This document shows, piece after piece, positions 7,885 through 53,499 of a stretch of 64,000 nucleotides of DNA. Positions within the stretch are counted from its first letter, which is position 1, and each line of letters begins with the position of its first letter. Source of the DNA: Candidatus Hydrogenedens sp. (lineage in GTDB: Bacteria; Hydrogenedentota; Hydrogenedentia; Hydrogenedentales; Hydrogenedentaceae). Location of the stretch: the NCBI GenBank assembly GCA_049968235.1, contig JBMFRC010000006.1, positions 64,001 to 128,000 on the forward strand. Direction: 5' to 3'. A program made the translations under genes and the position numbers. A model generated the notes under the pieces. It did no database searches. It was not told where the DNA came from and saw only the letters and a program-made list of their open reading frames with translations.

Positions 7885-8831
7885 TGAGAATACTCTTTTT
7901 TGGAACACCCGAAATTGCAATCCCATCATTACAGAAACTCCATAACCATTTTTTTGTTGTTGGGGTTGTCTGTCAACCGGATAAACCAAGTGGGAGGCAT
8001 CTTCGCATTACTCCACCGCCTATTAAAGTAGAAGCTGAAAAATTGGGTATACCCGTTTTTCAACCTGAAAAAGTTAATGATCCTATATATTTACAGCATT
8101 TTAAGAATTTACAACCTGATATTGGCGTTGTTGTGGCTTATGGTAGATTTTTAAAAGAAGAATTACTATCATTGCCCAAATCAGGATATTTTCTTAATTT
8201 ACATCCCAGCCTTCTTCCGCGATGGAGAGGACCTTCCCCCATACAAACTGCGATACTTGAAGGTGATACGGAAACGGGGGTAACAATTATGAAAATTTCT
8301 ATGGAAATGGATGCCGGAGATATTTTGTTGCAAAAATCTACATCTATTGATATTAATGAAACCGCAGAAGAACTTACTCATAGGTTATCCATAATGGGTG
8401 CGGATTTGTTAATACAATCTATCCATTTAATTGCAGAAAATAAAGCGGTATTTACCCCTCAGGACCATTCAAAGGCAACTTATTGTCATCTCATTGAAAA
8501 AAAACACGGTATTATACATTGGGAGTTACCGGCGTTGACAATACATAATTGCGTTCGTGGCTGCCTCCCCTGGCCCGTGGCTTTTACAAAATTTAAAGGT
8601 GAAATTATACGGATATATAAAACCGAATTAATATCTGGAAGTCAAAATTATAATGATGTAAAATCGGGCACCGTAGTAGAAATAAAAAAAGATAAATGTA
8701 TTGTAAAAACAGGAAAAGGATTGATAGGCATTTGTGTGCTTCAAGCACCAAACAGAAAACCCTTAACTTTTCGTGAATATATAAATGGCAAACCTATATG
8801 TATAGGTGATATTTTTGAGGATGCGTTGTAA
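7884..8831 (+). CDS. fmt: Methionyl-tRNA formyltransferase
   Basis: GTG start. MRILFFGTPE N-terminus. HPSLLPRWRGPSPIQ (SLLP formyltransferase motif). C-terminal Fmt domain. Confidence 0.9.
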   Translation: MRILFFGTPEIAIPSLQKLHNHFFVVGVVCQPDKPSGRHLRITPPPIKVEAEKLGIPVFQPEKVNDPIYLQHFKNLQPDIGVVVAYGRFLKEELLSLPKSGYFLNLHPSLLPRWRGPSPIQTAILEGDTETGVTIMKISMEMDAGDILLQKSTSIDINETAEELTHRLSIMGADLLIQSIHLIAENKAVFTPQDHSKATYCHLIEKKHGIIHWELPALTIHNCVRGCLPWPVAFTKFKGEIIRIYKTELISGSQNYNDVKSGTVVEIKKDKCIVKTGKGLIGICVLQAPNRKPLTFREYINGKPICIGDIFEDAL

Positions 8832-8832
8832 A

Positions 8833-11240: not shown

Positions 11241-11906
11241 ATGCTCAATAGAGATAGAAATATCAAGATTTCCCCATCTATCTTATCTTGTGATTTTAGT
11301 AAGATGGGAGAAGAAATTACACAATTAATTGAAGCAGGTGCGGATTATATCCATTTTGATGTAATGGATGGACATTTTGTTCCTAATATTACAATAGGAC
11401 CGCCCATAATTGCTTCCTTGCGAAGATACTGTTCTGTACCAATGGATGTTCATCTTATGATAGATAATCCGGAAGAATATGTTGATTCTTTTGCTGATGC
11501 AGGTGCGGATATAATAACCGTTCATGTTGAAGCAACAAATCATCCTCATCGTTTAATACAACACATTAAAGATATTGGATGTCAGGCGGGCATTGTATTA
11601 AATCCTTCTACTCCCGAAAGTCGTATTGAGTTTTTAGTCGAAGATATAGATATGGTTCTTGTAATGACCGTAAATCCGGGGTTTGGAGGTCAGAAGTTTA
11701 TTCCGGATATGCTTCGTAAAATTAAAGCCATTCGTGCAATGATAGGAGAACGCGATTTAGAAGTAGATGGTGGAATTGATGAAAAAACAGCACCGGAGGT
11801 CATCAAAGCAGGAGCAAATGTTCTCGTCGCAGGTTCCTATGTTTTCAATAATTCCTCTTATAAAGCGTCCATTAAAAAATTAAAAGAAAGTATAAATTTT
11901 ACTTGA
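11241..11906 (+). CDS. rpe: Ribulose-phosphate 3-epimerase
   Basis: [29 protein letters not shown] signature. 221 aa. RBS CAGGAG. Confidence 0.9.
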
Positions 11907-13226: not shown

Positions 13227-14333
13227 ATGCCGTGTAAAAAAATCTTTTGTATATTTATTTTTTCTATCCTATTTTTTCGCTTCTCTTTTTCAGCACAAGG
13301 ACAATATCATTCTTCTGATTATTTGGAACCCCATTTTGTTATTCAATTACCTGAATTACTCCGTTTGGTGCAAATTTATAATTTTGGTTCTTATCATTGC
13401 GACAGTTCATCCGAAGACGGTTACGCACTTGGAAATGGTGATACATCCTGCAAACCTCATAGTTCGGATTATAATCCACAGGATTGGACTATATCTTTTC
13501 AAGAGGTATTACGATTGGCTCAATTTTACAAATCCAGCTCGTATCATATTGATTTATCAGGAGAAGATGGCTTTCAGCCGGGGAATGAAACTGAACCTGT
13601 TCCGGGAACAGAAAAAACTTTTTTAGGGATTCCTTTCGTTTGGATTCCTTCGGGGTCCTTTTACATGGGAACAACAAAAAGTTCAACGGAATTAGTTCAA
13701 TTATATGGCGGAAGTTCCTCTTTATATAGTTCTGAATATCCACAACATTTGGTTGCTATCTCTAACGGTTTTTGGATGAGCCAGACTGAAATTACACAAA
13801 AACAATGGACAGATATAATGGGATACAATCCATCAAATAATATAGGTGCCAATCTCCCTGTAGAAAATTTATCGTGGAATGAATGCCAGAAATTTATTGA
13901 AAAACTTAATAAATTAGGAAATGGGATATTTCGTTTGCCTACTGAAGCCGAATGGGAATATGCGTGTCGTGCAGGTTCTAATTCTGAATTTTGTTTCGGT
14001 GATGATGCAGAACAATTAGACAATTACGGATGGCATTTTTATAATAGTAACTATCAAACACATCCTGTAAAACAAAAATTACCCAATGTATGGGGATTAT
14101 ATGATATGCATGGAAATGTATGGGAATGGTGTCAGGACTGGTATGATACTGAGTATTATCAATACTCCCCTACTCTTGACCCTACTGGACCTGCAACAGG
14201 TAAATATAAAGTTTTACGAGGAGGCACATGTTTACGGACATCTGCCCGTTGTAGGTCTGCTTTTCGTTCATGGAATATACCCGATTTAACTATGGCTGAC
14301 CAAGGATTTAGAATATGCAGAATTTCCGATTAA
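13227..14333 (+). CDS. Secreted FGE/SUMF1-family (formylglycine-generating enzyme-like) protein with N-terminal tandem Cys-containing module
   Basis: ATG 13227 gives signal peptide MPCKKIFCIFIFSILFFRFSFSAQG. The track ORF begins at an upstream TTG inside the terminator hairpin. C-terminal FGE-sulfatase fold (WEWCQDWY, RGGTCL...RCRSAFR, GFRICR). N-terminal ~100 aa consist of two copies of a module also present at the C-terminus of the next gene. Confidence 0.75.
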   Translation: MPCKKIFCIFIFSILFFRFSFSAQGQYHSSDYLEPHFVIQLPELLRLVQIYNFGSYHCDSSSEDGYALGNGDTSCKPHSSDYNPQDWTISFQEVLRLAQFYKSSSYHIDLSGEDGFQPGNETEPVPGTEKTFLGIPFVWIPSGSFYMGTTKSSTELVQLYGGSSSLYSSEYPQHLVAISNGFWMSQTEITQKQWTDIMGYNPSNNIGANLPVENLSWNECQKFIEKLNKLGNGIFRLPTEAEWEYACRAGSNSEFCFGDDAEQLDNYGWHFYNSNYQTHPVKQKLPNVWGLYDMHGNVWEWCQDWYDTEYYQYSPTLDPTGPATGKYKVLRGGTCLRTSARCRSAFRSWNIPDLTMADQGFRICRISD

Positions 14334-17300
14334 TATTCATTTTTCTATCTGGAGTATTTCTTTTTCACACATCCTCTTCTGGACATAATATAGGTATCTC
14401 TTCCTTATATTTTGAACCCAACCATAATCGTTTTGTTTCCGATGTGTTTTATTTTTCCATAGGAAATACTGTTTCTGTAGCATGTTATCAAAATGCTCTT
14501 GTGTTTTTTACATACAATTCTCAAGAATATTACAGAGTCGTTTTTCCTAAAGGTAAGCCTAAAGAAATTACAGGCAATATCCCTCTTCCATCATATTCAA
14601 CATATTTCTATGGGACGAATTCTACTCCTGCAATAGCAGTCCATTATAAAGCAGTTATATATAAAGAAATATTTCCGGGTATCGACTTATATTTATATGA
14701 AAAAGGAGGTAATTTTAAGTTCGATTTTATCGTTCATCCCGATTCAAAACCCGATGCGATTAGTATTAATTTTGAAACTCTCGATATACATAAGCAAAAG
14801 TGGATTTCTAAGAATCCTGAAATTGATGAAAACATTATTCGAATTGTCCACGATAATGTAAAACTAGATTTTTATGCCCCTTGTGCCTTTCAATGGATAA
14901 ATGGAATATCCCACAAAATACCTATTCGTTTATCGTATGACAATGGGGTGAAATTTTATATTCCTGAATCCTCATACAATCCCAATTATCCATTGCTTAT
15001 TGACCCTACTTTGTTGGCGGGCACATATTTGGGAGGGAATAATACCGACAAGATTATTGATGTAAAAACAGATACTGCAGGTAGCATCTATTTAGTTGGT
15101 GAAACAAAATCGCTTAATTTTCCTACCAGTGCTGGTTCTCTTCAAACAAACTATTCTGGTGGAGATATAACAGGAGATATATTTATTGCAAAATTAAATC
15201 CTCTTGCCAATTATCCCCTCTTTTCCACATTTTTGGGTGGTTCCGGGGATGATAGTGCCACAGCAATTAGAATTGATGAGCAAAGAAATATATATATAAC
15301 AGGGATAACTTCTTCTTCGGATTTTCCTACAACGACAAATGCCTATCAAACAACAAAAGCAGGTGGAAGAGATGCTTTTATTACAAAAATCAATTCAGAT
15401 GCTACCGAATTAATCTATAGTTCTTACATAGGAGGCAGTGGTGATGAAAGCATAATGGATTTCACTTTTCTTCCCGATAATAATATTGTTCTAACAGGCT
15501 GGACACAATCATCGGATTTTCCCATAACCGGAAGTTCTTCATTAAATTCTATGTTTAGCGGTGGAGGACTGGACGGATTTTTGTTTAAATGTAATTCATC
15601 ATTTCAACCTATATGGAGTGGTTTTATAGGAACAGCCGGTATAGATGTTTGTAAAACAATAGTAAATTTTGGTGGTGATATTATTTTAAGTGGATACACA
15701 TCCTCAATGAATTTTCCAACTACGCAGGGCGTATTTCAGATTTCTTATGGAGGTGGAAATTACGATTCATTTATAATGAAACTATCAGGTAATAATGCAT
15801 CTACAATATCTTCTTCTTATTTTGGGGGAAGTCTAATTGACCTATGTCAGGCTTTGATTTGTGATAGTTATGGAAACATATACATCACAGGAGAGACATC
15901 TTCCACCAACTTTCCAGTTAGTATCACATCGTTTCAGATTGGATATGGTGGTGGAGAAAGAGATGCTTTTGTTAGTAAACTATCTCCCAATTTAGACCAG
16001 ATAATTTTCAGTACTTATTTAGGAGGAAGTAAGACAGAATCAGGGCTCGGAATCGAATTGGACACATTATCACGAGTATATGTTGTTGGTTATACATATT
16101 CAGGAGATTTCCCTGTAATACCTGGGACATTACAACCTTTATATGGTGGTAATCAGGATGCATTTTTTGCATGCTTGAACCCTAATGGAAATACATTACA
16201 ATATAGTACTTTTTATGGAGGTAAAGGAGAAGAAAAAGCAAGGTCTGTCTATATTTCTAATTCCAATGTAATGTATACAGTAGGAGAAACTGCATCCAAT
16301 CTACTACCTATAACATCAGGGACTTTCCAGACAAGTTTTGGAGGAGGAACACTCGATGGTTTTCTCGCCTGTATTGATGTATCACCTCCTACAAATGAGG
16401 GAGAAGGACAAATAGAAGGGAATATTGAAGGAACCCCAGAAGGTTCGTTAGAAGGTGAAGGTTTAAGGGTATGGACAATAGCACCTGTGGAACGGGTTGT
16501 AACAGAAGGAGCAACAACTACTTTCATTATTGGTGTATCCGGTTATGTGGGAACTGTAAATTATCAATGGCAATTTAAGAGTATCATTGGAGAAGAATAT
16601 ATTCCTATTTTTAACAGCAATAGTCCTATGTTAACGTTGCGTAATATTCAATTTTCATCTTCTGGCTATTATCGATGTAGGGTAAGTGATTCTTTAGGGA
16701 CAGTATTCTCTTCTCCTTTCAAATTAACAGTTCTACAAAGTTTAGAAGGCTCAACAGAGGGGTTATTAGAAGGAAATATAGAAGGTATTATTGAAGGAAG
16801 TGCAGAAGGAACTACAGAAGGTTTATTAGAGGGAGTAGAAGAAGGGATACTAGAAGGCATTTCAGAAGGTTCAAATGAAGGGATTCTTCTTGAAGGTGAG
16901 GGTATAATAGAAGAAGGTCTAATGGAAGGTGAAGGTGCTTATTATCCCTGTGGTTTTGAGATAAATGGAAATGAAACTCATAGTCTCTTAAAAGATAAGG
17001 CTCAAAATCTTTATTATATTTATGTGCCTAATGAAGGGACATTAAACGACCTTATTGTTAATATTTCACTAACCCATGATAATTTACAGCAGATATTAAT
17101 TCAAATTGTATCCCCCTATGGAACAGAAGTTTTTCTACTGATTTATCCAGCACAAGGCGGAACTTCACTACAAAATACAAACTTTGACGATAATGCGGAA
17201 ATAAGTATAAGTGATGGAGTTAGTCCTTTTACAGGTAGTTACAAACCTGTGGGATATCTGGGAGTTTTACGAGGAGAAAATTTACAAGGTACATGGATGT

Positions 17301-17698
17301 TGAGAATTGTGGATTCCGAGACAGGTAGTAGAGGTTATCTTGAATCATGGAAATTGTTATTCAATACATATGCCTGTTCTGAAGAAGGAAATCCTGAAGA
17401 AGGTGAAATTGTAATGTATCATTCAGCAGATACCGATAAGAATCATTCTTTTTCCCTTGTTGAAGTGTTGCGGGTAATACAAATCTTCAATTTTGGTAGT
17501 TATCACTGTGATATTAATGGAGAGGATGGATATGGATTGGGTATAGGAGATCAGAATTGCAATCGCCATAGTTCTGATTATACAGGACCCTATTGGTCCA
17601 TTACTTTCCCCGAACTTTTGCGTTTAATACAGTTATTTAATATAGGTGGGTATGTATCCTGTTCAGATACAGAAGACGGTTTTTGTCCTATTCAATAG
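14315..17698 (+). CDS. Large secreted SBBP beta-propeller repeat protein with Ig-like domain, proprotein-convertase P-domain, EG-repeat linkers and C-terminal tandem module
   Basis: Signal peptide. About 11 SBBP-type repeats (GG.GDD.A.AI..D..GNIYITG.T.S.DFPTT). Ig-like domain (YQWQF...YYRCRVSD). P_proprotein domain (GTWMLRIVDSETGSRGYLESWKLLF). Two xEGx repeat blocks. Last ~95 aa homologous to the N-terminus of the FGE-like protein. Confidence 0.75.
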   Translation: MQNFRLIFIFLSGVFLFHTSSSGHNIGISSLYFEPNHNRFVSDVFYFSIGNTVSVACYQNALVFFTYNSQEYYRVVFPKGKPKEITGNIPLPSYSTYFYGTNSTPAIAVHYKAVIYKEIFPGIDLYLYEKGGNFKFDFIVHPDSKPDAISINFETLDIHKQKWISKNPEIDENIIRIVHDNVKLDFYAPCAFQWINGISHKIPIRLSYDNGVKFYIPESSYNPNYPLLIDPTLLAGTYLGGNNTDKIIDVKTDTAGSIYLVGETKSLNFPTSAGSLQTNYSGGDITGDIFIAKLNPLANYPLFSTFLGGSGDDSATAIRIDEQRNIYITGITSSSDFPTTTNAYQTTKAGGRDAFITKINSDATELIYSSYIGGSGDESIMDFTFLPDNNIVLTGWTQSSDFPITGSSSLNSMFSGGGLDGFLFKCNSSFQPIWSGFIGTAGIDVCKTIVNFGGDIILSGYTSSMNFPTTQGVFQISYGGGNYDSFIMKLSGNNASTISSSYFGGSLIDLCQALICDSYGNIYITGETSSTNFPVSITSFQIGYGGGERDAFVSKLSPNLDQIIFSTYLGGSKTESGLGIELDTLSRVYVVGYTYSGDFPVIPGTLQPLYGGNQDAFFACLNPNGNTLQYSTFYGGKGEEKARSVYISNSNVMYTVGETASNLLPITSGTFQTSFGGGTLDGFLACIDVSPPTNEGEGQIEGNIEGTPEGSLEGEGLRVWTIAPVERVVTEGATTTFIIGVSGYVGTVNYQWQFKSIIGEEYIPIFNSNSPMLTLRNIQFSSSGYYRCRVSDSLGTVFSSPFKLTVLQSLEGSTEGLLEGNIEGIIEGSAEGTTEGLLEGVEEGILEGISEGSNEGILLEGEGIIEEGLMEGEGAYYPCGFEINGNETHSLLKDKAQNLYYIYVPNEGTLNDLIVNISLTHDNLQQILIQIVSPYGTEVFLLIYPAQGGTSLQNTNFDDNAEISISDGVSPFTGSYKPVGYLGVLRGENLQGTWMLRIVDSETGSRGYLESWKLLFNTYACSEEGNPEEGEIVMYHSADTDKNHSFSLVEVLRVIQIFNFGSYHCDINGEDGYGLGIGDQNCNRHSSDYTGPYWSITFPELLRLIQLFNIGGYVSCSDTEDGFCPIQ
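16396..16465 (+). repeat. 12-nt tandem coding repeat (xEGx)n, block 1
   Basis: gaagg-containing 12-mers encoding EGEGQIEGNIEGTPEGSLEGEG. Confidence 0.6.
16741..16940 (+). repeat. 12-nt tandem coding repeat (xEGx)n, block 2 (~16 units)
   Basis: ttagaaggctca acagaggggtta ttagaaggaaat atagaaggtatt ... encoding LEGSTEGLLEGNIEGIIEGSAEGTTEGLLEGVEEGILEGISEGSNEG... Confidence 0.7.
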
Positions 17699-17701
17699 CA
17701 A

Positions 17702-18556
17702 TTAGGATATTTCTGAAAAACCTATCTCTAACAAATTCGTAGCCACACGAAAACGCTCTGATGATTTTTCTGCCCCTAAAACTACAGCTATAACCCGTGA
17801 TTTATTTCTTCGTGCTGTTGCTACGATGCAGTGACCTGCCAATTTCGTATACCCTGTTTTTAGTCCATCACAACCTACAAAAGTGGTGAGTAAATCATTT
17901 GTATTACTCCTTTCTATATTCTCATCCTGTATAATAAATTTCTTTTTAGATGTCCATGAAAGTAATACAGGCAACTTACAACATTCTAAAGCAAGATTAG
18001 CAAGGTCTTTTGCTGTTGTCCTATCTAAATCCCCTCCACTTTTAATGGGATACCCATTTACAGTAAAGTATTTCGTATTTTTCATCTCTAACTTTTTTGC
18101 CATCGAATTCATATCTTCTATACATTTACTTTCTGAACCCCATAAATATTCAGCAACTGTTACTGCGGATGTATTCGATGAGATAATAGCGATTGCATCC
18201 ATTAAATAACCTAATTTATATCTTTTGTCTGTTGAGAATATAATATCCGAATTGTTTTTGGGGAATATGGTTCTCTTTGGAACAACTTCATCTTCTAATT
18301 TTACTTCTTTCTTTATAATTTTTAATGCAACCAGATACATAAGCATCAATTTAACTAAACTTGCTGGAGGACAAATTGCATTTGCATCATCTTCAATTAT
18401 TATCTTCCTATTGTACGCATCAACACATATTTTTTTGATAGTTCTGTTAGGTTTTACTATTGGCGTAAATTTTGTTTTTCTTTTTGTTGCAACTGCAAAT
18501 AATAAGGATTGAAAAACGAAACTTCTCCGGTTAATTTTATTATTTTCTGCATGCAT
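17702..18556 (-). CDS. D-alanyl-D-alanine carboxypeptidase (peptidase S11, PBP5/6-like)
   Basis: SxxK (PASLVKLM), SxN (SSN) and KTG (KTGYT) active-site triad of serine DD-peptidases. N-terminal signal/anchor. Confidence 0.8.
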   Translation of the reverse strand: MHAENNKINRRSFVFQSLLFAVATKRKTKFTPIVKPNRTIKKICVDAYNRKIIIEDDANAICPPASLVKLMLMYLVALKIIKKEVKLEDEVVPKRTIFPKNNSDIIFSTDKRYKLGYLMDAIAIISSNTSAVTVAEYLWGSESKCIEDMNSMAKKLEMKNTKYFTVNGYPIKSGGDLDRTTAKDLANLALECCKLPVLLSWTSKKKFIIQDENIERSNTNDLLTTFVGCDGLKTGYTKLAGHCIVATARRNKSRVIAVVLGAEKSSERFRVATNLLEIGFSEIS

Positions 18557-26361: not shown

Positions 26362-27033
26362 TCATTTAGTTTTTTGTTCTTTCTGAAGAGGTTGTACAGA
26401 AAGTTTTACGGGAATAGAGGCTCCTGAAGATACGATAATTTCGATAGCCTGTTCCATCGTAATGGGACATTTATATATTTTTTCAGCAGGGTAAAATTGT
26501 AATATTCCCACACTTATATTAGGAGTAGTAGGGATAAAAACCCGATAGTATTCTTTTTTATTAGGAAGTTTAATTTTTCCTAACAAAAGTCCCATTGTAT
26601 AAATTTTATCATGTGTGAAGGGGACAATTACGATATAACGCGTGTGATTGGATGAAAACTGTTCTATAAAACTTACTGTCATCTGTTTTGCAGAATTGTA
26701 TATGGTTTTAACTATAGGAATTTTTTTGATAATTTTTTCAAAAAGAGATAAAATCTGGCGGATTAGGAAGAAACTTGATAAAAGCCCAACCAGATAGACA
26801 AAGATAACAATTAATATAACGGATATAGGAGCAATTAAATAATTCGGATATTCTGGAAACCATTGGGTCACATAAGGTGTTATACGTCCTACTGTAAAGT
26901 AATAGATAAATCTCAAAATCAAAAATGTTAATCCTAAAGGGACAACTGTCAATATACCTGCAAAGAAATATCTTCTTACTCTTCCCCAGATTTTAGACAT
27001 TTTCTTTTCCGTATTTTTCTTTTCAATCTGCAT
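26362..27033 (-). CDS. DUF502 family membrane protein
   Basis: Two N-terminal TM helices plus conserved IPTTPNISVG (TPNPTSG-like) DUF502 signature. Start may be the internal Met (MSKIWGRV, 27000). Confidence 0.7.
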   Translation of the reverse strand: MQIEKKNTEKKMSKIWGRVRRYFFAGILTVVPLGLTFLILRFIYYFTVGRITPYVTQWFPEYPNYLIAPISVILIVIFVYLVGLLSSFFLIRQILSLFEKIIKKIPIVKTIYNSAKQMTVSFIEQFSSNHTRYIVIVPFTHDKIYTMGLLLGKIKLPNKKEYYRVFIPTTPNISVGILQFYPAEKIYKCPITMEQAIEIIVSSGASIPVKLSVQPLQKEQKTK

Positions 27034-27736
27034 GTTTTTTCTCTATTTTTTGTAACTCTTGCTGCATATAGGAGTCTGCTTTTAACACCTCGGGTGTAAC
27101 AACTCCACCTGACAAAATCATTGTTACAATTTCATCCATTGGAATCTCCATTTCATCTCCTACGCTATCTTGAGGAACTAATTCAAAATATCCGCTTGTA
27201 GGATTAGGTGTAGTCGGAACAAAAACTGTTTTAAAAGAACCCAGTCCTTCAATCTCCACACTATTTGTAACTAAAGCAATACTTCTAACTCCGGGAAAGG
27301 GGAAATCAATAAATATTGCTGGACCTGATTTCTGTTTTTCTTCTTTCGCTTTTGTAAATACAGATACAATTTGTTTTGTAGCATTATATATGGTTTTTAT
27401 AAAAGGTATCCGTTCTAAAATACTTTCAAATAAGTAAAAAAGCCTACTCCCAACGTAGATATTTGTTATAACCCCTAAAAATAAAATCCCCAGTATTATC
27501 AATATTAAAGAAATAGCGGGGACAAAATAATCAGGCACCGTATAGAATATTTTTTTCGTAAGTGGTCCTAATTTATTATGTAACAATAAATAAAGTAATT
27601 GTATTACATAGAAGGTTACCCCGACAGGTATGATAACGATTAACCCTGTGAATATTCGATTAATTATGGAAGTTTTTATCGCTCTAAATAATCGTTTTAG
27701 CAGGATAATTAATCTTAATTTTAAGGAAGGATGCAT
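27023..27736 (-). CDS. DUF502 family membrane protein (paralog)
   Basis: Same architecture. VPTTPNPTSGYFELVPQD signature. Adjacent paralog. Confidence 0.7.
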   Translation of the reverse strand: MHPSLKLRLIILLKRLFRAIKTSIINRIFTGLIVIIPVGVTFYVIQLLYLLLHNKLGPLTKKIFYTVPDYFVPAISLILIILGILFLGVITNIYVGSRLFYLFESILERIPFIKTIYNATKQIVSVFTKAKEEKQKSGPAIFIDFPFPGVRSIALVTNSVEIEGLGSFKTVFVPTTPNPTSGYFELVPQDSVGDEMEIPMDEIVTMILSGGVVTPEVLKADSYMQQELQKIEKKHAD

Positions 27737-30323: not shown

Positions 30324-33300
30324 ATGGGTAAATACAAGAATATGGTTGCACAATTATTATTCATTCTTTCAATTACTTTAACATCTTATTGCTTTTCACA
30401 GGATAATTTGAAAAATACTTCTTATTTAGAAAATTATTTTTTCCATTCTGAACAGAACAACCATTATTTTGCTTTTTCAAAAAATCAATACTTTGAAATT
30501 ACACCGGGTAGTCTAAAAATATGGATATGGAATCCTATAAAAAATGCCTTTTGTGAACCTGTAGAAATTTGTTTTCTTAACAATGAGAGTAATGCTGTCC
30601 TGGGAAGTGAAAAATCTGATGTAACATACAGTTATTATTCAGGAAATAATCCGGATAATTGGATACATAATAATTTTGCCTATAAGAAATTATGTATTCC
30701 CAACATTTACAAAGGAATTGACCTTGAATTTTACTTTAATAATCATGAGTTAGAGTTTGATTTCATCATTAACTCTCAAACAGATACTAATCAAATCCTT
30801 TGGAGAATCTGTGGGAATAATGTTGAATCACATATTGAAAACAATCAATTAGTTATTACAAATAACGAAGGCTATACATACACTTTTAGCATTCCAGAAA
30901 TATACAAATCCGCAATTAAAAATCCTGCGAGTATTCTTTCACATAATGTTTCTTTTTTAGATTTAGATGGGAATACATACCAAATCTATGTTGATATTCA
31001 TGATAGAAATTCCGAATTGCTTATAGACCCAATACTTACATTATCAACATATATAATTTTTCCGTCATCCAACTGGCCTTCTTCGCTATTTACCAAAATG
31101 TGTTTAGACTACTATAACAATATTGAGGATATTGCTTTAATAGGGGGAGCCATTGAATTTCCCGGTTCTTCTGGAACGGATGTATCAGGATTTTTATGTA
31201 AATTATCCCCACAATTAGGGAAAACACATCATATTGTTTTTATAAATGGAATGGGTGAAGATTATATAAATTTCGTTACTCATTTTATAAATATGATGAA
31301 TGAATTTATCGTTATAGGTGGGAAAACAAATTCTCTTAACTTTCCGACTGTTAACCCAGTCCAACCTTTAAATAGCATTCTGAACAGAAATGGAACATCT
31401 GGTGAATTTGATGGTTTTCTTATGATGTTTGACAAAGACCTAAGGATAACTTTTTCTACTTTTGTCGGTGGGAGTGGATATGACTCTATTGAAGATATTA
31501 ACATTAACACCAATAATTTATTTTTTGCAGGGAATACAAATTCTACTGATTTACCTCTGGTAAATTCTTCATTAAAAACTCAAAAAGGACTACTTGCAGA
31601 TGGTTTCTGGGGTATACTGAAACTTACGGACCCATTGGAGTGTCGATATATAACAAAATTAGGCATAGATGGCATTGAAATCAAGGATATTGAATCATAT
31701 TCAACAATTATATATCTTTGTGGAAATACAAGCGTAGGTTTACCGTATTTTAACCCAATAGTCCCGGAAACACCTGTTCAAGGGCAGGACATCTTTATTC
31801 AAACTTATTCATATTCTGAAGGCACAACAATCCCTGATATTAGTTTATTATCTTCTTTATTCTTAGGCGGTTCGGATAATGATATATTGGAAAAATCTAT
31901 TCTTCTGAATACAAATACCCTTTGTTTGGCAGGGAATACATATTCAAATGATTTGCCAGAACCTGTCATTTCGACAATACCTGAAAAAATACCTGAAAAA
32001 ACTTATCCTTTTCTTATATTAGTTAATCCAACAGTAACTCAAAAATTAATAGGTACTCACTATATCTTTGGTAATGGAACCGATATAATAACTGATATAA
32101 AAACACCTAGTACCGATTCAAGCACATTTTTCATTGTAGGTTATACCAATAGTTATTTTGAAAATTTTAATTGGAATAACACCGAATTTACTTCCAATCC
32201 GTTTGATACCTCGCTCAATAATGGGGCAAATGAAAACTTTGATGCAATGGTATGGAGACTTCAATGGAACAGCATAGAAAATACAATCACGCCTACATGG
32301 GGAACATTTTTAGGGGGAACTTTAAATGATACAGCATTGTCCATAGGTACTGTTGATAGTAATCACATTTGCTTTTCGGGTATAACAAATTCTCCTGATT
32401 TCCCATTACAGGGGTGTCAAACTATAGCACCAGCATATTTACCAAGCCATTATTTATCTGCTTTTAATATATCGGGTAAAGTTATATATGTAAATCCTGA
32501 CAGTTCTGTTGATCCCACTGATGGCAGTTCATGGGAAAAAGGTTACCATACTATTTCAGAAGCCATTAGTTCTGCTAACAACTATGATGAAATATGGATA
32601 AAATCTGGATATTACAATGAAAGGCTTACAATTAATGGATTTTCAAATCTTATCTTGCGAGGTGGTTTTTCAGGTTTAGAAACGAATATAGATGAAATAA
32701 ATCCATGGGAAAATCCAACAAAGATTTCCCCTATACAGGTAAAAGGAACGGGAAACTTAGGAACACCCACCTTAAATATTACATCGTGCATGAATATTGT
32801 ATTAAATGGACTTGTTTTTGAAAGTGGAACTAATATACTTGGTGATGGTGGAGCCATAAATATTTCTAATTCCACTGTTCGTATCCTATGTTCTCAATTT
32901 TACAAAAACAATTCAAATGGGAACGGTGGGGCTATCTATATTAATAATTCGTATGCAAACATCGCAAACTGTGTATTTGTTCAGAATTCTTGTTCAGGAA
33001 ACGGTTCGGGTATTTCTGCTAACGAATCTACAGTTAAAATTATACATTGCACATTTGCTAACAATTTTAATTCCGTTAGCGAAGATGTTAGCACTGTAGA
33101 CATTCAAGGTTCTACATCTATGCTAATGATACTCAACTCTATAATCTGGGCTAATGAGGGAAATACTCATGTTCAGATAAATTATCCTGAAATTATTCCT
33201 CCTGTAAATCTTCTATTCAGCCATTCAATTATCCAAAATTTCAGTTTATTATCTACACCACCATCACCCAATACCGTACTTGATACTAACCCTCTATTTA

Positions 33301-35957
33301 TTGAGAACCCGTCCGAAACAACACCTGGCGACTTAAATTTAAATCTGGAATCACCAGCGGTAAATCTTGCTGACCCAATCTCACTTACAATAGAATACGG
33401 TGCTGTTAATGAAGATATTCGTCGCAAACCGCGAATATTTATGGGAGAGAGTTGTAAACCTGATGCAGGAGCCTTCGAAATATTTCCTGCTCCCACACCT
33501 GTAATCACACTCTTGGGCGATAATCCCTTATATTTAACTATAAATAATCCCTACATTGAACCTGGATATGTATCTAAAGATGGATGTGATGTTGATATAA
33601 CATTTTTAGTAGATGTTACTTCCAATGTAAATACAGAACAGACAGGAGAATACACTGTAGAGTATTCGGTAATAAGTCCGTATGACCAGGGACAGATAAT
33701 AAAAGCAATCCGGAGAGTTATAGTCATCACTGCTTCATCGCAAATCATCCTTAACGGACCATCCGATGTGGTAATAGAATGTGGAAACTTTTTTATTGAC
33801 CCCGGTGCAGTAGCATTTGATTTATTGGGGAATAATATTTCCAATGAAATTATTGTTACGGATAATGTTGATTATTCAACTCCTGGAACATATACCATAG
33901 AATATAGTGTAACAGAGACAGAAAGCCATCCTGCCCTTCATGCTGTAAGAAATATAACGGTTCAGGATACAACTCCCCCAATACTTATTCTAATAGGTCC
34001 TCCGCAGATTACCATTCCTTGTGGTTCAACATGGTCTGACCCGGGATACATTGCATTTGACCAATGTTCACTTAATAATGTGCAGGTAAATGTAACAGGT
34101 AGTGTAAACACTTCTGCCACTGGAACCTATACGATTACTTACACTGCCTATGATGAGAACGAACATACATCCACTCTCACAAGAAAAGTCGTTGTTGATT
34201 GCAATATTCCTCAATTACAACAATGCCAGAATCAATGTTCTAATGATACTTCTCCTGTAGATAACGATGGAGATGGTCTATCATTTTGTATAGAGACTTG
34301 TTTGGGGACATCCGACCAGGATATAGATAGCGATGATGATAGTATGCCGGATTATTTTGAAGCAACATATAACTTAAATCCACTATTTAATGATGCGAAG
34401 GAAGATGCAGATTTAGATGGATTATCAAATCTTGAAGAATTTCTTACAAAGACCAATCCTATTGATTCCAATTCTCCATGGGAAGCCCATTATGTATCTA
34501 ATTCTGGCGATGACGATAATCCCGGGACATTGCAGTCCCCTCGTGCTACTATAACAACTACTCTTGGCAATATTAATACAAATCAAAATAAACAATCCTC
34601 TATTGTGCTGTTTCCAGGGAATTATTATGAAGATATTGTTTTATCAGAAAATATTGTTTTAATTGGAATCACAGCCTACGGTGAAAATAACAGACCTGTT
34701 ATCTACGGAAAAATTACGGGGGCTAATGGAGCAAAAATTTATAATGTTGATATAAAATCCAGTACAACCTCACCTGCAATAATTCCTGTTAAAGCCGAAG
34801 TTGAGAAGCCCATACTTCTGAATTGTGGTAATACTTCCATGCATATACGAAATGTCCGCTTTTTAGGTACAGGTTCGGAGATAGGTATATCTGTAGAAGG
34901 TGGAAATTGCTATAACACCATTATAGAGAGATGCCTCTTCCAGGATTTAAGTATTGGAATTCTAATAGGTGATAGTATCCCTGTTATCAGGAGATGCATT
35001 TTTAAATCATCACTTTCAACAAAAACTGATTCAACAGGTATTTATATTGAAGATAATTCAGGAAGTTACAATCCATCCAATTCTTTAGGTGATGTTAATG
35101 ACCCCAATACAGGTTGGAATACATTTAATCTTAATGGAGGAAAAGCGATAGTATGTAAAAGAGCCGAGGAGATTAAGGCTCATAACAATGACTGGGGAAC
35201 AGAGGATAGTGGAGAAATTTTAAATCAAGTTGAAGGAAATTTAGATACCCAATATTATCTGGGGAAAGGTAAAGCCATGATTGCTTCTTCACTTGCATGT
35301 GTTGTGTGGAATGCCAATAACAGAGACCCTATCATCAACGCCACGGTAGCAATAAATCCTTCTGTCTATCCACCATTAACACAAAATACAAAAGGCGTTT
35401 ATACTTTCTCATCCATTCCATCAGGGACCTATACCATAACAATATCTGCCCCTAATTTTTTAACACGACAGATTAATACAAATATACCTGAAGGAGATTT
35501 AAAATCTGAATCTGTAGCATTAAAACCTGTTGAAGGTGAAGGAACGGCTGATGGAGAAGGAACTACCGAAGGAATTCAAGAAGGTTCTACGGAAGGAACA
35601 ACTGAAGGTGAAAAAGAAATATTAATTCCTGATGTAAGAGGAATGTCTGTAGAGGAAGCAACTCAAGTATTAAATTCTGCAGGACTTCGTGTTTCAAATA
35701 CTATAAAAGAAGAATATAACCAGGAAGTTTCCAGAGGGAAAGTTACTCGAACGGAACCAGCAATCGGGACAAAAGTAGTCCAAAATACAGAAATAACTCT
35801 GGTAGTTAGTAAGGGGGCAAAAAGAAGATTTATTATTTCCTGTGGTCCTAATTACAATAGAAACTCGTATTGGGGCGATATAATCATTTGTATCTTTGCA
35901 TCCACCTTGCTTTTGTACAATCGTCCAGGAAAAGTATCTATAAATAAGAACAAATAA
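30324..35957 (+). CDS. Giant (1877 aa) multidomain surface protein: SBBP repeats, right-handed beta-helix, 3x DUF5011 Ig-like, TSP3-type Ca-binding repeats, second beta-helix, CarboxypepD_reg-like, EG-repeat linker, C-terminal PASTA domain + hydrophobic tail
   Basis: Signal peptide. SBBP repeats (NTNSLNFPT.., NTNSTDLPL..). Beta-helix repeats (GGAINISNSTVRI, GGAIYINNSYANI, NGSGISANESTVKI). DUF5011-like units (PVITLLGDNP...GEYTVEYSV, GTYTIEYSVTE, GTYTITYTAYDE). DNDGDGLS/DIDSDDDSMPD/DADLDGLSN Ca-binding loops. PASTA (IPDVRGMSVEEATQVLNSAGL...TEITLVVSKG). Confidence 0.75.
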   Translation: MGKYKNMVAQLLFILSITLTSYCFSQDNLKNTSYLENYFFHSEQNNHYFAFSKNQYFEITPGSLKIWIWNPIKNAFCEPVEICFLNNESNAVLGSEKSDVTYSYYSGNNPDNWIHNNFAYKKLCIPNIYKGIDLEFYFNNHELEFDFIINSQTDTNQILWRICGNNVESHIENNQLVITNNEGYTYTFSIPEIYKSAIKNPASILSHNVSFLDLDGNTYQIYVDIHDRNSELLIDPILTLSTYIIFPSSNWPSSLFTKMCLDYYNNIEDIALIGGAIEFPGSSGTDVSGFLCKLSPQLGKTHHIVFINGMGEDYINFVTHFINMMNEFIVIGGKTNSLNFPTVNPVQPLNSILNRNGTSGEFDGFLMMFDKDLRITFSTFVGGSGYDSIEDININTNNLFFAGNTNSTDLPLVNSSLKTQKGLLADGFWGILKLTDPLECRYITKLGIDGIEIKDIESYSTIIYLCGNTSVGLPYFNPIVPETPVQGQDIFIQTYSYSEGTTIPDISLLSSLFLGGSDNDILEKSILLNTNTLCLAGNTYSNDLPEPVISTIPEKIPEKTYPFLILVNPTVTQKLIGTHYIFGNGTDIITDIKTPSTDSSTFFIVGYTNSYFENFNWNNTEFTSNPFDTSLNNGANENFDAMVWRLQWNSIENTITPTWGTFLGGTLNDTALSIGTVDSNHICFSGITNSPDFPLQGCQTIAPAYLPSHYLSAFNISGKVIYVNPDSSVDPTDGSSWEKGYHTISEAISSANNYDEIWIKSGYYNERLTINGFSNLILRGGFSGLETNIDEINPWENPTKISPIQVKGTGNLGTPTLNITSCMNIVLNGLVFESGTNILGDGGAINISNSTVRILCSQFYKNNSNGNGGAIYINNSYANIANCVFVQNSCSGNGSGISANESTVKIIHCTFANNFNSVSEDVSTVDIQGSTSMLMILNSIIWANEGNTHVQINYPEIIPPVNLLFSHSIIQNFSLLSTPPSPNTVLDTNPLFIENPSETTPGDLNLNLESPAVNLADPISLTIEYGAVNEDIRRKPRIFMGESCKPDAGAFEIFPAPTPVITLLGDNPLYLTINNPYIEPGYVSKDGCDVDITFLVDVTSNVNTEQTGEYTVEYSVISPYDQGQIIKAIRRVIVITASSQIILNGPSDVVIECGNFFIDPGAVAFDLLGNNISNEIIVTDNVDYSTPGTYTIEYSVTETESHPALHAVRNITVQDTTPPILILIGPPQITIPCGSTWSDPGYIAFDQCSLNNVQVNVTGSVNTSATGTYTITYTAYDENEHTSTLTRKVVVDCNIPQLQQCQNQCSNDTSPVDNDGDGLSFCIETCLGTSDQDIDSDDDSMPDYFEATYNLNPLFNDAKEDADLDGLSNLEEFLTKTNPIDSNSPWEAHYVSNSGDDDNPGTLQSPRATITTTLGNINTNQNKQSSIVLFPGNYYEDIVLSENIVLIGITAYGENNRPVIYGKITGANGAKIYNVDIKSSTTSPAIIPVKAEVEKPILLNCGNTSMHIRNVRFLGTGSEIGISVEGGNCYNTIIERCLFQDLSIGILIGDSIPVIRRCIFKSSLSTKTDSTGIYIEDNSGSYNPSNSLGDVNDPNTGWNTFNLNGGKAIVCKRAEEIKAHNNDWGTEDSGEILNQVEGNLDTQYYLGKGKAMIASSLACVVWNANNRDPIINATVAINPSVYPPLTQNTKGVYTFSSIPSGTYTITISAPNFLTRQINTNIPEGDLKSESVALKPVEGEGTADGEGTTEGIQEGSTEGTTEGEKEILIPDVRGMSVEEATQVLNSAGLRVSNTIKEEYNQEVSRGKVTRTEPAIGTKVVQNTEITLVVSKGAKRRFIISCGPNYNRNSYWGDIIICIFASTLLLYNRPGKVSINKNK
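35530..35612 (+). repeat. 12-nt tandem coding repeat (xEGx)n, block 3
   Basis: Encodes VEGEGTADGEGTTEGIQEGSTEGTTEGE. Same gaagg 12-mer periodicity as in the 14315..17698 gene. Confidence 0.6.
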
Positions 35958-35974: not shown

Positions 35975-37021
35975 TTAAGGCTCAGATTTTTTGTTGTGCT
36001 GTTTCTTTTTAATTGCCTTACGGTAATGCATAACCGCATCTGTGTGGGTATCAATATCTTTACTAAATGTATGTGTCCTCCCATCTGCATTAGATACAAA
36101 ATAAAGATATTCCCCTAATTCAGGAAATAAAGCAGAGCGTAAACTGGTAAGACCGGGATTTGATATAGGAGTAGGAGGTAAACCTTTATATTTATAGGTA
36201 TTATATGGGGAATCCACTTCCTTATCGGCATTGGTTAGTAATACTCCATATTTTTGATTGGCATATTGCAATGTCGCATCAATTTGGAGAGGCATGTCTT
36301 TCTTTAATCGATTATATATAACTTGTGCAATAAGAGGTCGTTCTTCATCTATTTTTGCTTCTTCTTCAATTAAAGAGGCTATTATAACTTTTTGATATTT
36401 CTCTTCATTGGAAAGTTCAAAGCCATTTTCCTCCATCAATTTTTTCCATTCTTTATCAAACTGACTAATCATTACATCAGCAAGGGTTTTAGCATCAGGT
36501 ATCTCTTCAAATAGATATGTCCCCGGCATTAAAAATCCTTCTACGGTAGGACCCGCGATATTTTTCTCTTTTGCATACTCACTAGAATTTACAATTTTTA
36601 GAAATTCTTCCGGGTCTGGAGCAATCATTGATATTTGTTTATTTGTTAAACCCTCCGGAACAGTTATTTTATATGCACATATAGGACGAATAGGACCTTT
36701 TAGTAGAAGTTCATATATTTGTTGAACAGAATATCCTTTGGGAATAGAATATATACCATATTTTATATCTTTATCCCCTCCTTTTATTCTTAACAAGGCT
36801 AAAAAGAAAATTTCATGGGGAATAAGTCCTTTTTCTTTAAGTAGAAACGCAATATCTTGTGCGGTGTTTCCTTTATTTACGGTTATTTCAACAGGTTCTC
36901 CCGGAACCCCTTCCCTTACTATATATACATACCCCCCTGCAATAACAATGCCCATTACCAATAATAAACATATCACTATAAATAAACCCACAAGTAATAT
37001 TTTTAATATGATTCTTTTCAT
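35975..37021 (-). CDS. mltG: Endolytic murein transglycosylase MltG (YceG-like)
   Basis: N-terminal TM anchor then YceG domain (LYFVSNADGRTHTFSKDIDTHTDAV C-terminal catalytic region). Confidence 0.85.
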   Translation of the reverse strand: MKRIILKILLVGLFIVICLLLVMGIVIAGGYVYIVREGVPGEPVEITVNKGNTAQDIAFLLKEKGLIPHEIFFLALLRIKGGDKDIKYGIYSIPKGYSVQQIYELLLKGPIRPICAYKITVPEGLTNKQISMIAPDPEEFLKIVNSSEYAKEKNIAGPTVEGFLMPGTYLFEEIPDAKTLADVMISQFDKEWKKLMEENGFELSNEEKYQKVIIASLIEEEAKIDEERPLIAQVIYNRLKKDMPLQIDATLQYANQKYGVLLTNADKEVDSPYNTYKYKGLPPTPISNPGLTSLRSALFPELGEYLYFVSNADGRTHTFSKDIDTHTDAVMHYRKAIKKKQHNKKSEP

Positions 37022-51918: not shown

Positions 51919-53499
51919 TTACATTCTATTCAAATATGGGCAGTTGTTTATATCTTTCTTCATTATTACAATGTCTTCTGCAAAATTCAAGCATGCGGGT
52001 GCTCCACAAACTCCACAATCATAGCCGGGTAATTTTTTATTTATTTTTTCTATCTCACTAAGTTTCTGAATCGCTATTCTTACATCCTCATCAAGTCGCA
52101 CACCTTTCCGTGAATTGATAGTGGATACACGGTATATTGCATCTATTTTTTGATTTTCATATTTATGCTTCTGTTCATTCCAGAATGAATCAAAAATTAT
52201 TTTTGACATGGTGGGTTCTTCACCCCAATATGGAGAGCCAAAACAGCCATTATAGCAAGCATACAATTCCACCATTTTTATAGGGACAGGTAATTGTTTC
52301 TTTTCTATATTTTCTAAAAACGTTTTTACCTGCTCTATTCCAGATATTGTTACTATGCCATCATTGCTATTTTTGTCAATATTTATATTGTGTATTTTAT
52401 CTTTTTGTTTTTTCTTATTTGTTTCTTTATATATATCCATTATCATTTCAAATGATTTCTGGGGAGAAATCATTTGAATAGAAATATCTAAATTTTTATT
52501 GTTATTAACTGCGGATATCTGAGCAGGACAAGAAGGTATAAAAAAGATATTTCGTCTTTCAGCGAAACTACTTATCGCTGTTTCTATAGGTCCCAAATAG
52601 GGAGCAATATTATCAATCAATGAAGGATATTCCGTTTGTATCCAGTATAGGACTGCGGGACAAACGGGTAATATTAAAGGGAAATTAATTTTTTCATTGT
52701 TCTCAATATATTTTTGTGTTTCTTTTTGTAATACTTCCTCCCATAATACTAATGGAAATACTTCCAATCCTTTTCTGTGGAATTTTTCTTCGAACTCATC
52801 CCATGAATAATAAAGTAGAATAGAAGCAATCCATGGTGAGGGGGCGATAAGTATTCCCTGCTTTTCCTTTTCATGATTTTTCTCGCAATCCTCCAAATCA
52901 AATACTTTCGTAGGACATATCTTTATACATTCATTACAATTGATGCAATGGTGAGACAAAATATACAAGTTTTTTTCATACAGTCTTATGGCTTTTGTGG
53001 GACATCTTGATAGACATTGCAAACATTTTTTACATTTCTCTGCCGTTACATGAACATAACTATCAACTTTTGAAAAATCTTTGTCTGACTTTACAAATAT
53101 AAGTATTTTTAACAAAGTGCCTGTGGGCTCGCTATGTATAACAAAGTAGTCTGAATTTTTCCTTATGTTAGGTAAACCCATTCCTGCTCCGAAACCCATT
53201 TCTCTTGCTTCGTCGGGTGCAGTAGAGTACCCTTCCTGAACAGCAAGGTCAATTCGGGGAATACCGGGTCCTGTATCCTTAACTACAATCTCAATTTTTT
53301 CATCATCTATTGTAAAATTAATTTCTCCTCCATAAGAATGGATAATAACATTCATCTCCGACTCATAAACGGCAATCATAATCTTTCGGATTATTTCGGG
53401 GGCTATTGCCAACTTACTTAATATTTCTTTAATTTTTGAAGAAACCTGTCCGCCACCTAAATAATCTCCTTTTTTTACTGGATATGAACCTGTAATCAT
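51919..53499 (-). CDS. Fusion protein: GHKL Ser-kinase-like ATPase + 2x[4Fe-4S] ferredoxin + degenerate [FeFe]-hydrogenase H-cluster-like domain (HfsB-like sensory hydrogenase homolog)
   Basis: N-terminal HATPase_c (DTGPGIP, GAGMGLPN). CKKCLQCLSRCP and CINCNECIKICP ferredoxin motifs. Then PVCPAVLYW (compare TSCCPxW), IPSCPAQ (compare MPCxxK), ELYACYNGCFGSP (compare ExMACxxGCxxGG). C-terminal CGVCGAPAC. Confidence 0.75.
   Translation of the reverse strand: MITGSYPVKKGDYLGGGQVSSKIKEILSKLAIAPEIIRKIMIAVYESEMNVIIHSYGGEINFTIDDEKIEIVVKDTGPGIPRIDLAVQEGYSTAPDEAREMGFGAGMGLPNIRKNSDYFVIHSEPTGTLLKILIFVKSDKDFSKVDSYVHVTAEKCKKCLQCLSRCPTKAIRLYEKNLYILSHHCINCNECIKICPTKVFDLEDCEKNHEKEKQGILIAPSPWIASILLYYSWDEFEEKFHRKGLEVFPLVLWEEVLQKETQKYIENNEKINFPLILPVCPAVLYWIQTEYPSLIDNIAPYLGPIETAISSFAERRNIFFIPSCPAQISAVNNNKNLDISIQMISPQKSFEMIMDIYKETNKKKQKDKIHNINIDKNSNDGIVTISGIEQVKTFLENIEKKQLPVPIKMVELYACYNGCFGSPYWGEEPTMSKIIFDSFWNEQKHKYENQKIDAIYRVSTINSRKGVRLDEDVRIAIQKLSEIEKINKKLPGYDCGVCGAPACLNFAEDIVIMKKDINNCPYLNRM

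Follow-up and report, generated by a model that had tools for sequence, protein, structure and literature searches.

LPXTG, PEP-CTERM, GlyGly-CTERM, and MYXO-CTERM each led to a dedicated enzyme and to a surface-display pathway. We describe here a candidate C-terminal signal in a protein of 1877 amino acids (aa), encoded in a stretch of 64,000 nucleotides of Candidatus Hydrogenedens sp. DNA (contig JBMFRC010000006.1, positions 64,001 to 128,000), which we call the window. The signals of the Cys type with which we compare it, namely MYXO-CTERM (TIGR03901), JDVT-CTERM, Synerg-CTERM (TIGR04564), and CGP-CTERM, are substrates of CPBP-family myxosortases (bioRxiv 10.1101/2023.06.07.544157; mBio 2025, PMC11980579). 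In these known signals, the motif abuts the transmembrane (TM) helix without a spacer (Haft, bioRxiv 10.1101/2023.06.07.544157). The 1877-aa protein would be a giant protein of the Candidatus Hydrogenedens envelope or cell surface, and its last ~115 residues a portable anchoring or sorting cassette; judging from the sequence comparisons described below, we give this reading a probability of about 0.5. An earlier inspection of the same DNA (hereafter the original prediction) had viewed the protein as a secreted mosaic anchored to the cell wall by a C-terminal PASTA domain, with a short hydrophobic tail.

The open reading frame (ORF) exists as it had been delineated, and its C-terminal end can be divided as follows.

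30324..35957 (+): ORF of the 1877-aa giant protein, uninterrupted in translation from its ATG start
35529..35618 (+): low-complexity acidic linker (xEGx)n, aa 1736-1765, read in the sequence as originally described; start of the cassette
35619..35816 (+): PASTA domain, aa 1766-1831 (Pfam PF03793, PDB profile match, and AlphaFold2 (AF2) model)
35817..35846 (+): signature motif AKRRFIISCG, aa 1832-1841, of which Cys1840-Gly1841 is invariant
35847..35879 (+): polar spacer PNYNRNSYWGD, aa 1842-1852, with an aromatic residue and an invariant Asp at its end (from alignments)
35880..35918 (+): hydrophobic TM segment IIICIFASTLLLY, aa 1853-1865 (hydropathy 2.59)
35919..35957 (+): basic C-terminal tail NRPGKVSINKNK, aa 1866-1877, and stop codon (from the translation)

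The PASTA domain is genuine. PF03793 matched aa 1768-1830 with an E-value of 1.8e-16 and a score of 60.3 bits, compared with a cutoff of 23.2, over positions 3-64 of a model of 64 positions; the segment did not, therefore, fail the PASTA model, an outcome that would have spoken against the original prediction. A profile search of the PDB with the domain retrieved Stk1 of S. aureus (3py9, 8.6e-13) and PknB of M. tuberculosis, as well as 3m9g and 2kui. In an AF2 model of the C-terminal 493 aa, which had a mean pLDDT (predicted local distance difference test) of 50 and was informative only for PASTA and for a beta-sandwich located upstream, the domain folded as a strand, a helix, and three strands (E381-383, H392-401, E411-414, E422-427, and E439-447 in fragment numbering; pLDDT 80-88). 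No Pkinase or Transpeptidase match was found with Pfam in the 1877-aa protein, and the PknB_PASTA_kin model (NF033483) reached 48 bits, against a cutoff of 450, in the PASTA region only. The protein is therefore, as had been proposed, a giant adhesin-like protein with a C-terminal PASTA domain and without a kinase or penicillin-binding protein (PBP) domain. The short hydrophobic tail was also found as predicted, IIICIFASTLLLY being followed by NRPGKVSINKNK at the very C-terminus. AF2 placed a helix of low pLDDT over aa 1849-1865, while the signature motif was modeled with low confidence and without secondary structure packed on PASTA, although the model is weak in this region.

Within the genus Candidatus Hydrogenedens, which the NCBI taxonomy places under Candidatus Hydrogenedentota, in the FCB group, the gene is conserved. 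An NCBI entry of 100% identity is annotated as 'immunoglobulin-like domain-containing protein [Candidatus Hydrogenedens sp.]', although exact matching of the protein against contigs gave no hit. Full-length orthologs comprised seven proteins with 69-100% identity and two remoter ones with ~55% (loci L003 and L004), all with PASTA and the tail. The neighbors are housekeeping genes (that for GlnRS lies upstream, those for MltG/YceG and RuvX lie on the opposite strand, downstream), and the order glnS–X–mltG/ruvX is kept in four species-representative genomes, including that of Ca. Hydrogenedens terephthalaticus. The ORF is preceded by an AT-rich intergenic region of 141 bp and is convergent with the downstream gene, with 17 bp between the two stop codons. 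A scan for promoters and terminators gave sites no more numerous than in shuffled sequence. One of the ortholog loci (L004:15497-22100) contains an insertion of ~6.5 kb between the giant gene and mltG/ruvX, which carries a 1376-aa ORF and, in duplicate, another ORF whose product has a transposase-like C-terminus ('…REL NHIRQYIIDNPKNWEHD').

A further ortholog group (P0008; 49% identical, 9 cluster members, annotated Ca. Hydrogenedens sp.) is devoid of PASTA. At the C-terminus of these proteins, an EG/DG-rich linker leads directly into KKCGCNQKGNKTSISE, then into a TM helix, and finally into RPKKNKRL. When eight ortholog sequences were aligned, P0008 included, the only residues invariant past the linker were Cys1840, Gly1841, and Ser1848. 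Because P0008 keeps the series Cys–spacer–TM–basic tail without PASTA, the tail appears to be the core anchor and PASTA an accessory, with which one lineage can dispense. The role of PASTA as the anchor, as originally proposed, is thus only partly borne out: the domain is real, but it would not act on its own, since the Cys motif is the best conserved element and P0008 retains the tail in its absence.

Further evidence for a portable element was obtained by searching for the cassette on other proteins, a check that the original prediction had recommended for giant proteins. A profile of PASTA plus tail, compared with 1.84 billion representative proteins, returned 17,087 PASTA proteins, and the matches that extended through the whole tail were P0002 (an ortholog), P0195 and, more loosely, P0170. 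These leads were combined with a motif-seeded scan of metagenomes, yielding a carrier set of more than 20 cassette loci in Hydrogenedens genomes and metagenomes. The C-terminal PASTA and tail are indeed shared, on giant secreted proteins of at least three unrelated architectures:

Carrier family A (the window ORF, L001-L004, L013-L016, L028): DUF7948, propeller, and Ig-like (immunoglobulin-like) domains
Carrier family B (L008:820-5130, L009:10731-13700, L018:5846-10348): signal peptide, EG repeats of up to ~450 aa, CarboxypepD_reg, a dockerin/cohesin-like region, and one or two PASTA domains, with two PF16403 Ig domains in some members
Carrier family C (L012:4928-10471, L023, L027): GLUG-motif N-terminus and four PASTA domains
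P0195: truncated end of a further cassette-bearing gene

Their common C-terminal layout was …[LV][IV]SKG–[AK]K[RK]R[RHS]FI[IV]SCG–(9-12 polar residues)–D–TM–basic, a TM helix and an R/K-rich tail being present in every carrier. An EG-type linker before PASTA was also found in L008:820-5130, L009:10731-13700, and P0209. To exclude PASTA from the comparison, we built a local hidden Markov model (HMM) of the tail only and ran it with --max on all the DNA that had been fetched (~450 kb of loci). It found the carriers at E-values of 1e-13 to 1e-23, at the extreme C-terminus, while the next best E-value was 0.2. A search with a tail-only profile returned nothing at E<=10 from a database of 5.8 billion proteins, the query being probably too short or bias-filtered. 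Members of the 90% cluster of family B are annotated Ca. Hydrogenedens sp., and the accession series suggest that family B members and P0008-type orthologs come from the same Ca. Hydrogenedens metagenome-assembled genomes. As to the broader proposal that PASTA is used generally as a wall-binding module in this organism, it agrees with the presence of PASTA plus tail on at least three architectures of giant secreted proteins, but PASTA is found there as a component and not as the sole module.

Two carriers deserve a separate description. At L009:8902-10564, L010, and L011, a family B gene is cut to a 3' remnant encoding 187 aa (P0209: EG linker, PASTA, and tail), which adjoins an rve-family insertion sequence integrase; an intact paralog of 989 aa lies directly downstream. 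P0209 and the 989-aa paralog are a tandem pair of which one copy has been disrupted. P0170 (745 aa) has an internal SGC–spacer–TM–RKARYR series at residues ~160-230, followed by a second signal-peptide-like stretch, after which come the N-terminal domain again, five PASTA domains, and a similar tail. It probably represents two adjacent tail-bearing genes merged by gene calling, in which case the first gene would have a Cys tail without PASTA.

The elements of the cassette are not conserved to the same extent. Between carrier families, the 10-residue motif was 70-90% identical, PASTA 36-72%, and the spacer, TM helix, and tail together 21-62%; the order of conservation is thus motif, then PASTA, then TM and tail. 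In 15 tails from at least three carrier families, the invariant residues were K, F, I, S, C, and G, and the Asp that precedes the TM helix. Cys1840 was invariant throughout orthologs and carriers, and Cys-Gly was kept even in the PASTA-less P0008. The PASTA domain of the cassette was only 24% identical to that of a three-PASTA protein encoded elsewhere in the window (10080..11204). It follows that the cassette spread as one unit rather than being built time and again from a housekeeping PASTA gene, and we rejected, on the basis of the same value, the idea that its PASTA is a recent copy from that protein.

With its Cys motif, TM helix, and basic cluster at the extreme C-terminus, the cassette displays the tripartite layout of Cys-type signals, and as one short C-terminal domain found on several unrelated secreted proteins of one lineage it corresponds to the operational definition of a sorting signal. 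It is probably a lineage-specific, PASTA-coupled anchoring or sorting signal, kin to the tripartite C-terminal signals. Matching no NCBIfam or Pfam model, it looks as if it had escaped description; a literature search on a limited set of papers gave nothing relevant on PASTA in combination with sorting signals, Planctomycetes, or Hydrogenedentes. No LPXTG-like pentapeptide was present in the last 60 residues, nor did any NCBIfam or Pfam anchor model, Gram_pos_anchor included, match there. The sequence I-I-S-C (aa 1837-1840) fits the lipobox [LVI][ASTVI][GAS]C; this assignment was rejected, the stretch being preceded by KRR and three hydrophobic residues and lying outside a signal peptide.

The following sequence of events can be proposed. 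The N-terminal signal peptide would direct the protein to Sec export, and the TM helix and basic tail would then stop transfer, leaving, as suggested by their positive-inside layout, a protein with its N-terminus outside and its C-terminus inside in the cytoplasmic membrane. PASTA would thereby lie within ~30 residues of the outer face of this membrane, beside peptidoglycan and its lipid-linked precursors, on which it probably docks noncovalently, by analogy with the PknB/PrkC-type kinases. The Cys motif, given its conservation and the reuse of the cassette, would be recognized by a partner, most likely a processing or modifying enzyme; the mature protein would then be attached to the envelope or passed on for surface display. 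The latter point depends on the architecture of the envelope. Cassette-bearing contigs encode an LpxL-like acyltransferase, an AlgE-type outer-membrane barrel, and an ATPase of the type II secretion system (T2SS) type; these genes, together with the position of the organism in the FCB group, suggest that Hydrogenedens has an outer membrane. With such a membrane, adhesin-like passengers would be more likely to undergo a further step of sorting. These envelope terms do not occur in the Hydrogenedentota paper that was searched.

A second type of Cys-containing tail was encountered among the multi-PASTA proteins. About 17-20 of the 149 top ones (P0064, P0081, P0095, P0141, P0152, and others) end with GCxGC–(12-20 aa)–LGD–TM–basic. 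These tails form a coherent domain of ~45 aa ('GCxGC–(12-20 aa)–LGD–LFLxGLxL–basic'), members of which scored 50-74 bits with a local HMM and for which NCBIfam has no model; the domain resembles a further sorting signal of the Cys type that has escaped description. They occur in the same phylum and share with the cassette the order Cys motif, spacer, acidic residue, TM helix, basic tail; in 5 out of 17 cases they immediately follow PASTA, as in the cassette. They differ from it by their longer spacer and by the fact that they are not tied to PASTA, since 12 of the 17 come after EF-hand/dockerin-like segments. The tail of P0008 (KKCGC…E-TM-RPKKNKRL) looks intermediate between the two types. Homology between them is unproven, as cross-comparison of the HMMs gave E-values above 3 and hhalign a probability of 4%, and as it could not be demonstrated we treat the two types as analogous. 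One of the clusters concerned, P0064, has 21 PASTA repeats, some of its members being annotated Ca. Hydrogenedens/Hydrogenedentota, and the annotation Planctomycetota is borne by a protein in which PASTA is repeated 30 times. More generally, many metagenomic giants of 2,000-3,300 aa (P0059-P0076) contain 20-32 tandem PASTA domains, the one named example being from Planctomycetota. The domain is therefore far from confined to PBPs and kinases. A more specific model, which we put forward only tentatively, is that the cassette is the substrate signal of an undescribed Hydrogenedentota sorting system, in which a dedicated enzyme would recognize the Cys motif and cleave at the Cys or modify it, while the retained PASTA would target the mature giant protein to peptidoglycan or its lipid-linked precursors, and for which the GCxGC…LGD–TM tails would be a sister signal handled by the same or related machinery.

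Several observations weigh against an anchoring or sorting cassette. The 47-aa tail and related tails (~12 in all) were scanned with the sorting-signal models of NCBIfam, whose library includes the MYXO-, JDVT-, Synerg-, and CGP-CTERM models; none matched at E<=10, a threshold at which the HMMER filters drop most matches above E~0.1. The original prediction had named a match to a known sorting signal as what would contradict it, and none was thus found, though the tail is built like such a signal. No CPBP protease (PF02517), sortase, exosortase, or rhombosortase was encoded in the 64-kb window or beside the other carriers. A spacer of 9-12 residues (11 in the window protein) separates the motif from the TM helix. 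With the exception of P0008, the tail was seen only together with PASTA, so that the motif could be conserved as a structural continuation of this domain and not as a site of recognition. Not all PASTA domains bind muropeptides. Finally, in a cell with an outer membrane, anchoring to the inner membrane would not by itself explain how an ectodomain of 1,800 aa gets to the surface. Two other candidates for a sorting enzyme, a small M50 protease encoded 12 kb away and the DUF502 proteins encoded upstream of glnS, were discarded because nothing ties either family to the cassette. The DUF502 genes form a tandem pair (26362..27736, minus strand; three TM helices in each product), two genes upstream of the giant gene, and are found in all ortholog loci.

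Part of these data would also be accounted for by a plain membrane anchor, in which the hydrophobic segment is a stop-transfer helix of type I proteins and PASTA plus KRRFIISCG a juxtamembrane stalk that is neither cleaved nor modified and needs no enzyme, the motif prolonging the fold of PASTA or forming an amphipathic interfacial element. This is a possible explanation, though not one that we would expect to prevail: no sorting enzyme lies near any carrier, the motif always accompanies PASTA as one folded unit would, the spacer between motif and TM helix is unlike what is seen in signals cleaved within the membrane, and the HMMs of known sorting signals are all without match. It accounts poorly, however, for a motif that is more conserved between carrier families than the PASTA fold itself, and the invariant Cys-Gly of P0008, where there is no PASTA, is hard to read as a PASTA extension. 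AF2 did not show any structure of the motif packed onto PASTA, with the reservation already made on this model, and a giant adhesin-like ectodomain held at the inner membrane of a diderm could not leave the periplasm.

The original view of PASTA as a noncovalent cell-wall anchor on peptidoglycan, with an incidental hydrophobic tail, appears unlikely. PASTA is genuine and terminal, it is greatly expanded on giant secreted proteins of the phylum (up to the 21 repeats of the Hydrogenedens-annotated cluster), and the window also encodes the kinase-less three-PASTA protein; but P0008 orthologs keep the tail without PASTA, the tail motif outconserves PASTA, and every carrier has the TM helix and the basic tail. 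It is equally improbable, and perhaps slightly more so, that the cassette simply belongs to the known Cys-type signals of the MYXO-CTERM class. The invariant Cys followed by Gly, the tripartite layout, and the basic C-terminus would agree with this, as would the CGC of the P0008 tail, which recalls the GCGC of MYXO-CTERM, and the existence of GCxGC…TM tails on other Hydrogenedentota proteins. Against such membership stand the failure of NCBIfam models to match any of the ~12 tails at E<=10, the spacer of 9-12 residues compared with none in all four known signals, the lack of a PF02517 gene in the window or the loci, and the 4% probability of the profile-profile comparison with the GCxGC family. 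The reading that we retain is a probable PASTA-coupled cassette of the lineage's own.

The passenger that precedes the cassette in the 1877-aa protein was analyzed with Pfam, with fold and profile searches, and with a second AF2 model covering DUF7948, the propeller, and the first beta-helix (mean pLDDT 70).

30324..30398 (+): signal-peptide-like N-terminus, MGKYKN / MVAQLLFILSITLTSY / CFS, followed by Q (from the translation)
30561..31034 (+): DUF7948, aa 80-237 (Pfam PF25778, E=1.7e-23; AF2 beta-sandwich, pLDDT 75-90)
31089..32393 (+): SBBP-like beta-propeller, aa ~256-690 (AF2 and Foldseek)
32481..33233 (+): probable right-handed parallel beta-helix, aa ~720-970 (AF2; GGAI motifs at aa 842 and 868)
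33498..34199 (+): three Bact_surface_Ig-like domains (DUF5011, PF16403), aa ~1059-1292 (Pfam, E=1.7e-47)
34239..34472 (+): Asp-rich, thrombospondin-type-3 (TSP3)-like putative Ca-binding loops DNDGDG, DIDSDDD, and DADLDG, aa 1306-1383 (motif positions, partial HMM match)
34491..35273 (+): region aa ~1390-1650, originally taken for a second beta-helix (AF2 pLDDT mostly <50)
35304..35519 (+): CarboxypepD_reg-like beta-sandwich, aa 1661-1732 (Pfam PF13620, E=5.3e-7; AF2 pLDDT 60-87)

Most of the domain order that had been read by eye was recovered. A signal-peptide-like N-terminus was recognized, again by eye; since orthologs keep the n- and h-regions but not the Cys, it is more likely to be of type I than of the lipoprotein kind. 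DUF7948 had not been named in the original prediction. The SBBP propeller was supported as a fold, AF2 showing four-stranded blades (pLDDT 70-90) over aa ~256-690 and Foldseek giving the beta-propeller of CylK as the best PDB match (E=1.8e-11), and also by homology, since proteins with PF25778 and PF06739 aligned by phmmer over 17-37% of the query, with the repeat consensus visible in the alignment. The Pfam SBBP model itself (PF06739), however, matched neither the whole protein (E<=1) nor the sub-region when scanned separately (E<=10). Similarly, the first beta-helix is plausible from the AF2 model, which showed triplets of short strands with a period of ~26 residues (pLDDT 75-88), and from the GGAI motifs, but it was not confirmed by fold search and the Beta_helix scan was negative, with no significant HMM match; the weak hints were Chlam_PMP (E=1.5) and pectinesterase (E=0.007). 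Three of the sequence-search hits (P0042, P0044, and P0046) carry PF13229.

The three Ig-like domains were the clearest case in this part of the protein, PF16403 scoring 159.8 bits over three stretches (cutoff 27) and the PDB profile search matching the region with Ig-like domains of chitinase 60 (1.3e-9). The TSP3 loops could be located as DxDxDG-type motifs with a partial match to NCBIfam MtsD (throspo3, 4e-9), but Pfam TSP3_bac reached only E=1.1. We found no support for the second beta-helix, as the AF2 pLDDT of aa ~1390-1650 was below 50 and no Pfam match was obtained at E<=10; the region is conserved among orthologs. Lastly, the CarboxypepD_reg assignment agrees with the AF2 beta-sandwich but its Pfam score, 30.3 bits, falls slightly short of the gathering cutoff of 32.3. 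The same domain was above cutoff in the cassette carriers L009:10731-13700 and L018.

Two other proteins encoded in the window share domains with the 1877-aa protein.

10080..11204 (+): kinase-less TM protein of 374 aa with three PASTA domains (Pfam PASTA, E=3e-28, three stretches), outside the cassette family
14315..17698 (+): 1127-aa paralog of the N-terminal part of the giant protein, with DUF7948, three SBBP, Ig_3, P_proprotein, and EG linkers (Pfam, translation)

The first of these, already noted in the original prediction as a kinase-less PASTA protein, does contain PASTA in three copies. It consists of a short cytoplasmic stub, a TM helix, the three PASTA domains, and a C-terminal domain of ~90 aa, and its gene lies between fmt/rsmB (7884..10164) and rpe (11241..11906), a slot that we take to be the prpC-prkC position of the Firmicutes fmt-rsmB-…-rpe cluster. 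The protein resembles a PrkC-type ectodomain without its kinase, retained in conserved synteny by a bacterium of the FCB group. The 1127-aa paralog has no PASTA and no TM tail, and the tail HMM did not match it. It ends instead with two Cys modules, '…ELLR[LV]IQ[LF]FNxGGYxxCxDxEDG[YF]CP', without a TM helix and without a Pfam match. The same module closes a 507-aa PASTA protein at L012:3188-4711; possibly, therefore, the secreted proteins of Hydrogenedens have a second C-terminal module that recurs among them. The paralog is followed by a gene for an S11 D-Ala-D-Ala carboxypeptidase (17702..18556, minus strand), and the 1877-aa protein by that for MltG (35975..37021, minus strand); the presence of peptidoglycan-remodeling genes beside both DUF7948 giants may be a coincidence. 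Farther away, a gene on the minus strand (51919..53499) encodes a 526-aa protein in which an ATPase domain of the histidine-kinase type (HATPase_c/HATPase_c_2) is joined to 4Fe-4S ferredoxin motifs and to the C-terminal portion of an [FeFe]-hydrogenase large subunit, and which resembles a sensory or regulatory hydrogenase-like protein.

If the proposed reading of the cassette is correct, an uncultured phylum of the FCB group would join the lineages with C-terminal sorting signals, and its signal would be the first to have a folded, peptidoglycan-associated domain as an integral part. The role of PASTA would be widened from an appendage of Gram-positive sensors and PBPs to a general envelope-anchoring module carried by giant adhesin-like proteins in a probable diderm. 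The short tail HMM could serve to list the surface proteome of Hydrogenedens, which is recurrent in anaerobic digesters, and to drive phylogenetic profiling for the partner enzyme. Should the tail be only a membrane anchor, the cassette would still be a tidy example of modular reuse, of modest interest.

Compared with the known systems, the cassette is most like the Cys-type signals in its position at the extreme C-terminus of secreted proteins, in the succession of an invariant-Cys motif, a hydrophobic helix, and a basic cluster, and in its reuse on many unrelated passengers of one lineage. Besides the spacer, it differs from them by a motif, KRRFI[IV]SCG, that is unrelated in sequence and without HMM match, by the PASTA domain that obligatorily precedes this motif (P0008 aside), by the lack of a CPBP protease in the window or the flanking loci, and by a basic tail rich in Lys and Asn rather than in Arg. 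With the LPXTG/sortase signal it shares the order of motif, hydrophilic spacer, TM helix, and basic tail, the giant adhesin-like nature of the proteins that bear it, and a conceptual tie to peptidoglycan and lipid II; it has, however, neither LPXTG nor a related motif, and its host belongs to the FCB group and is probably a diderm. Finally, like the PknB/PrkC/Stk1 kinases and the class B PBPs (PBP2x), the protein has a PF03793 domain that would be extracytoplasmic and near the membrane. In contrast with them, it has no kinase or transpeptidase domain and contains a single copy of PASTA. The orientation is also reversed, since the PASTA domains of the kinases are C-terminal to the TM helix, while that of the cassette comes after a passenger of ~1,750 aa and is N-terminal to a C-terminal TM helix. 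PASTA kinases and PBPs are those of Firmicutes or Actinobacteria, whereas the cassette brings PASTA to the end of giant proteins in a Gracilicutes/FCB lineage.

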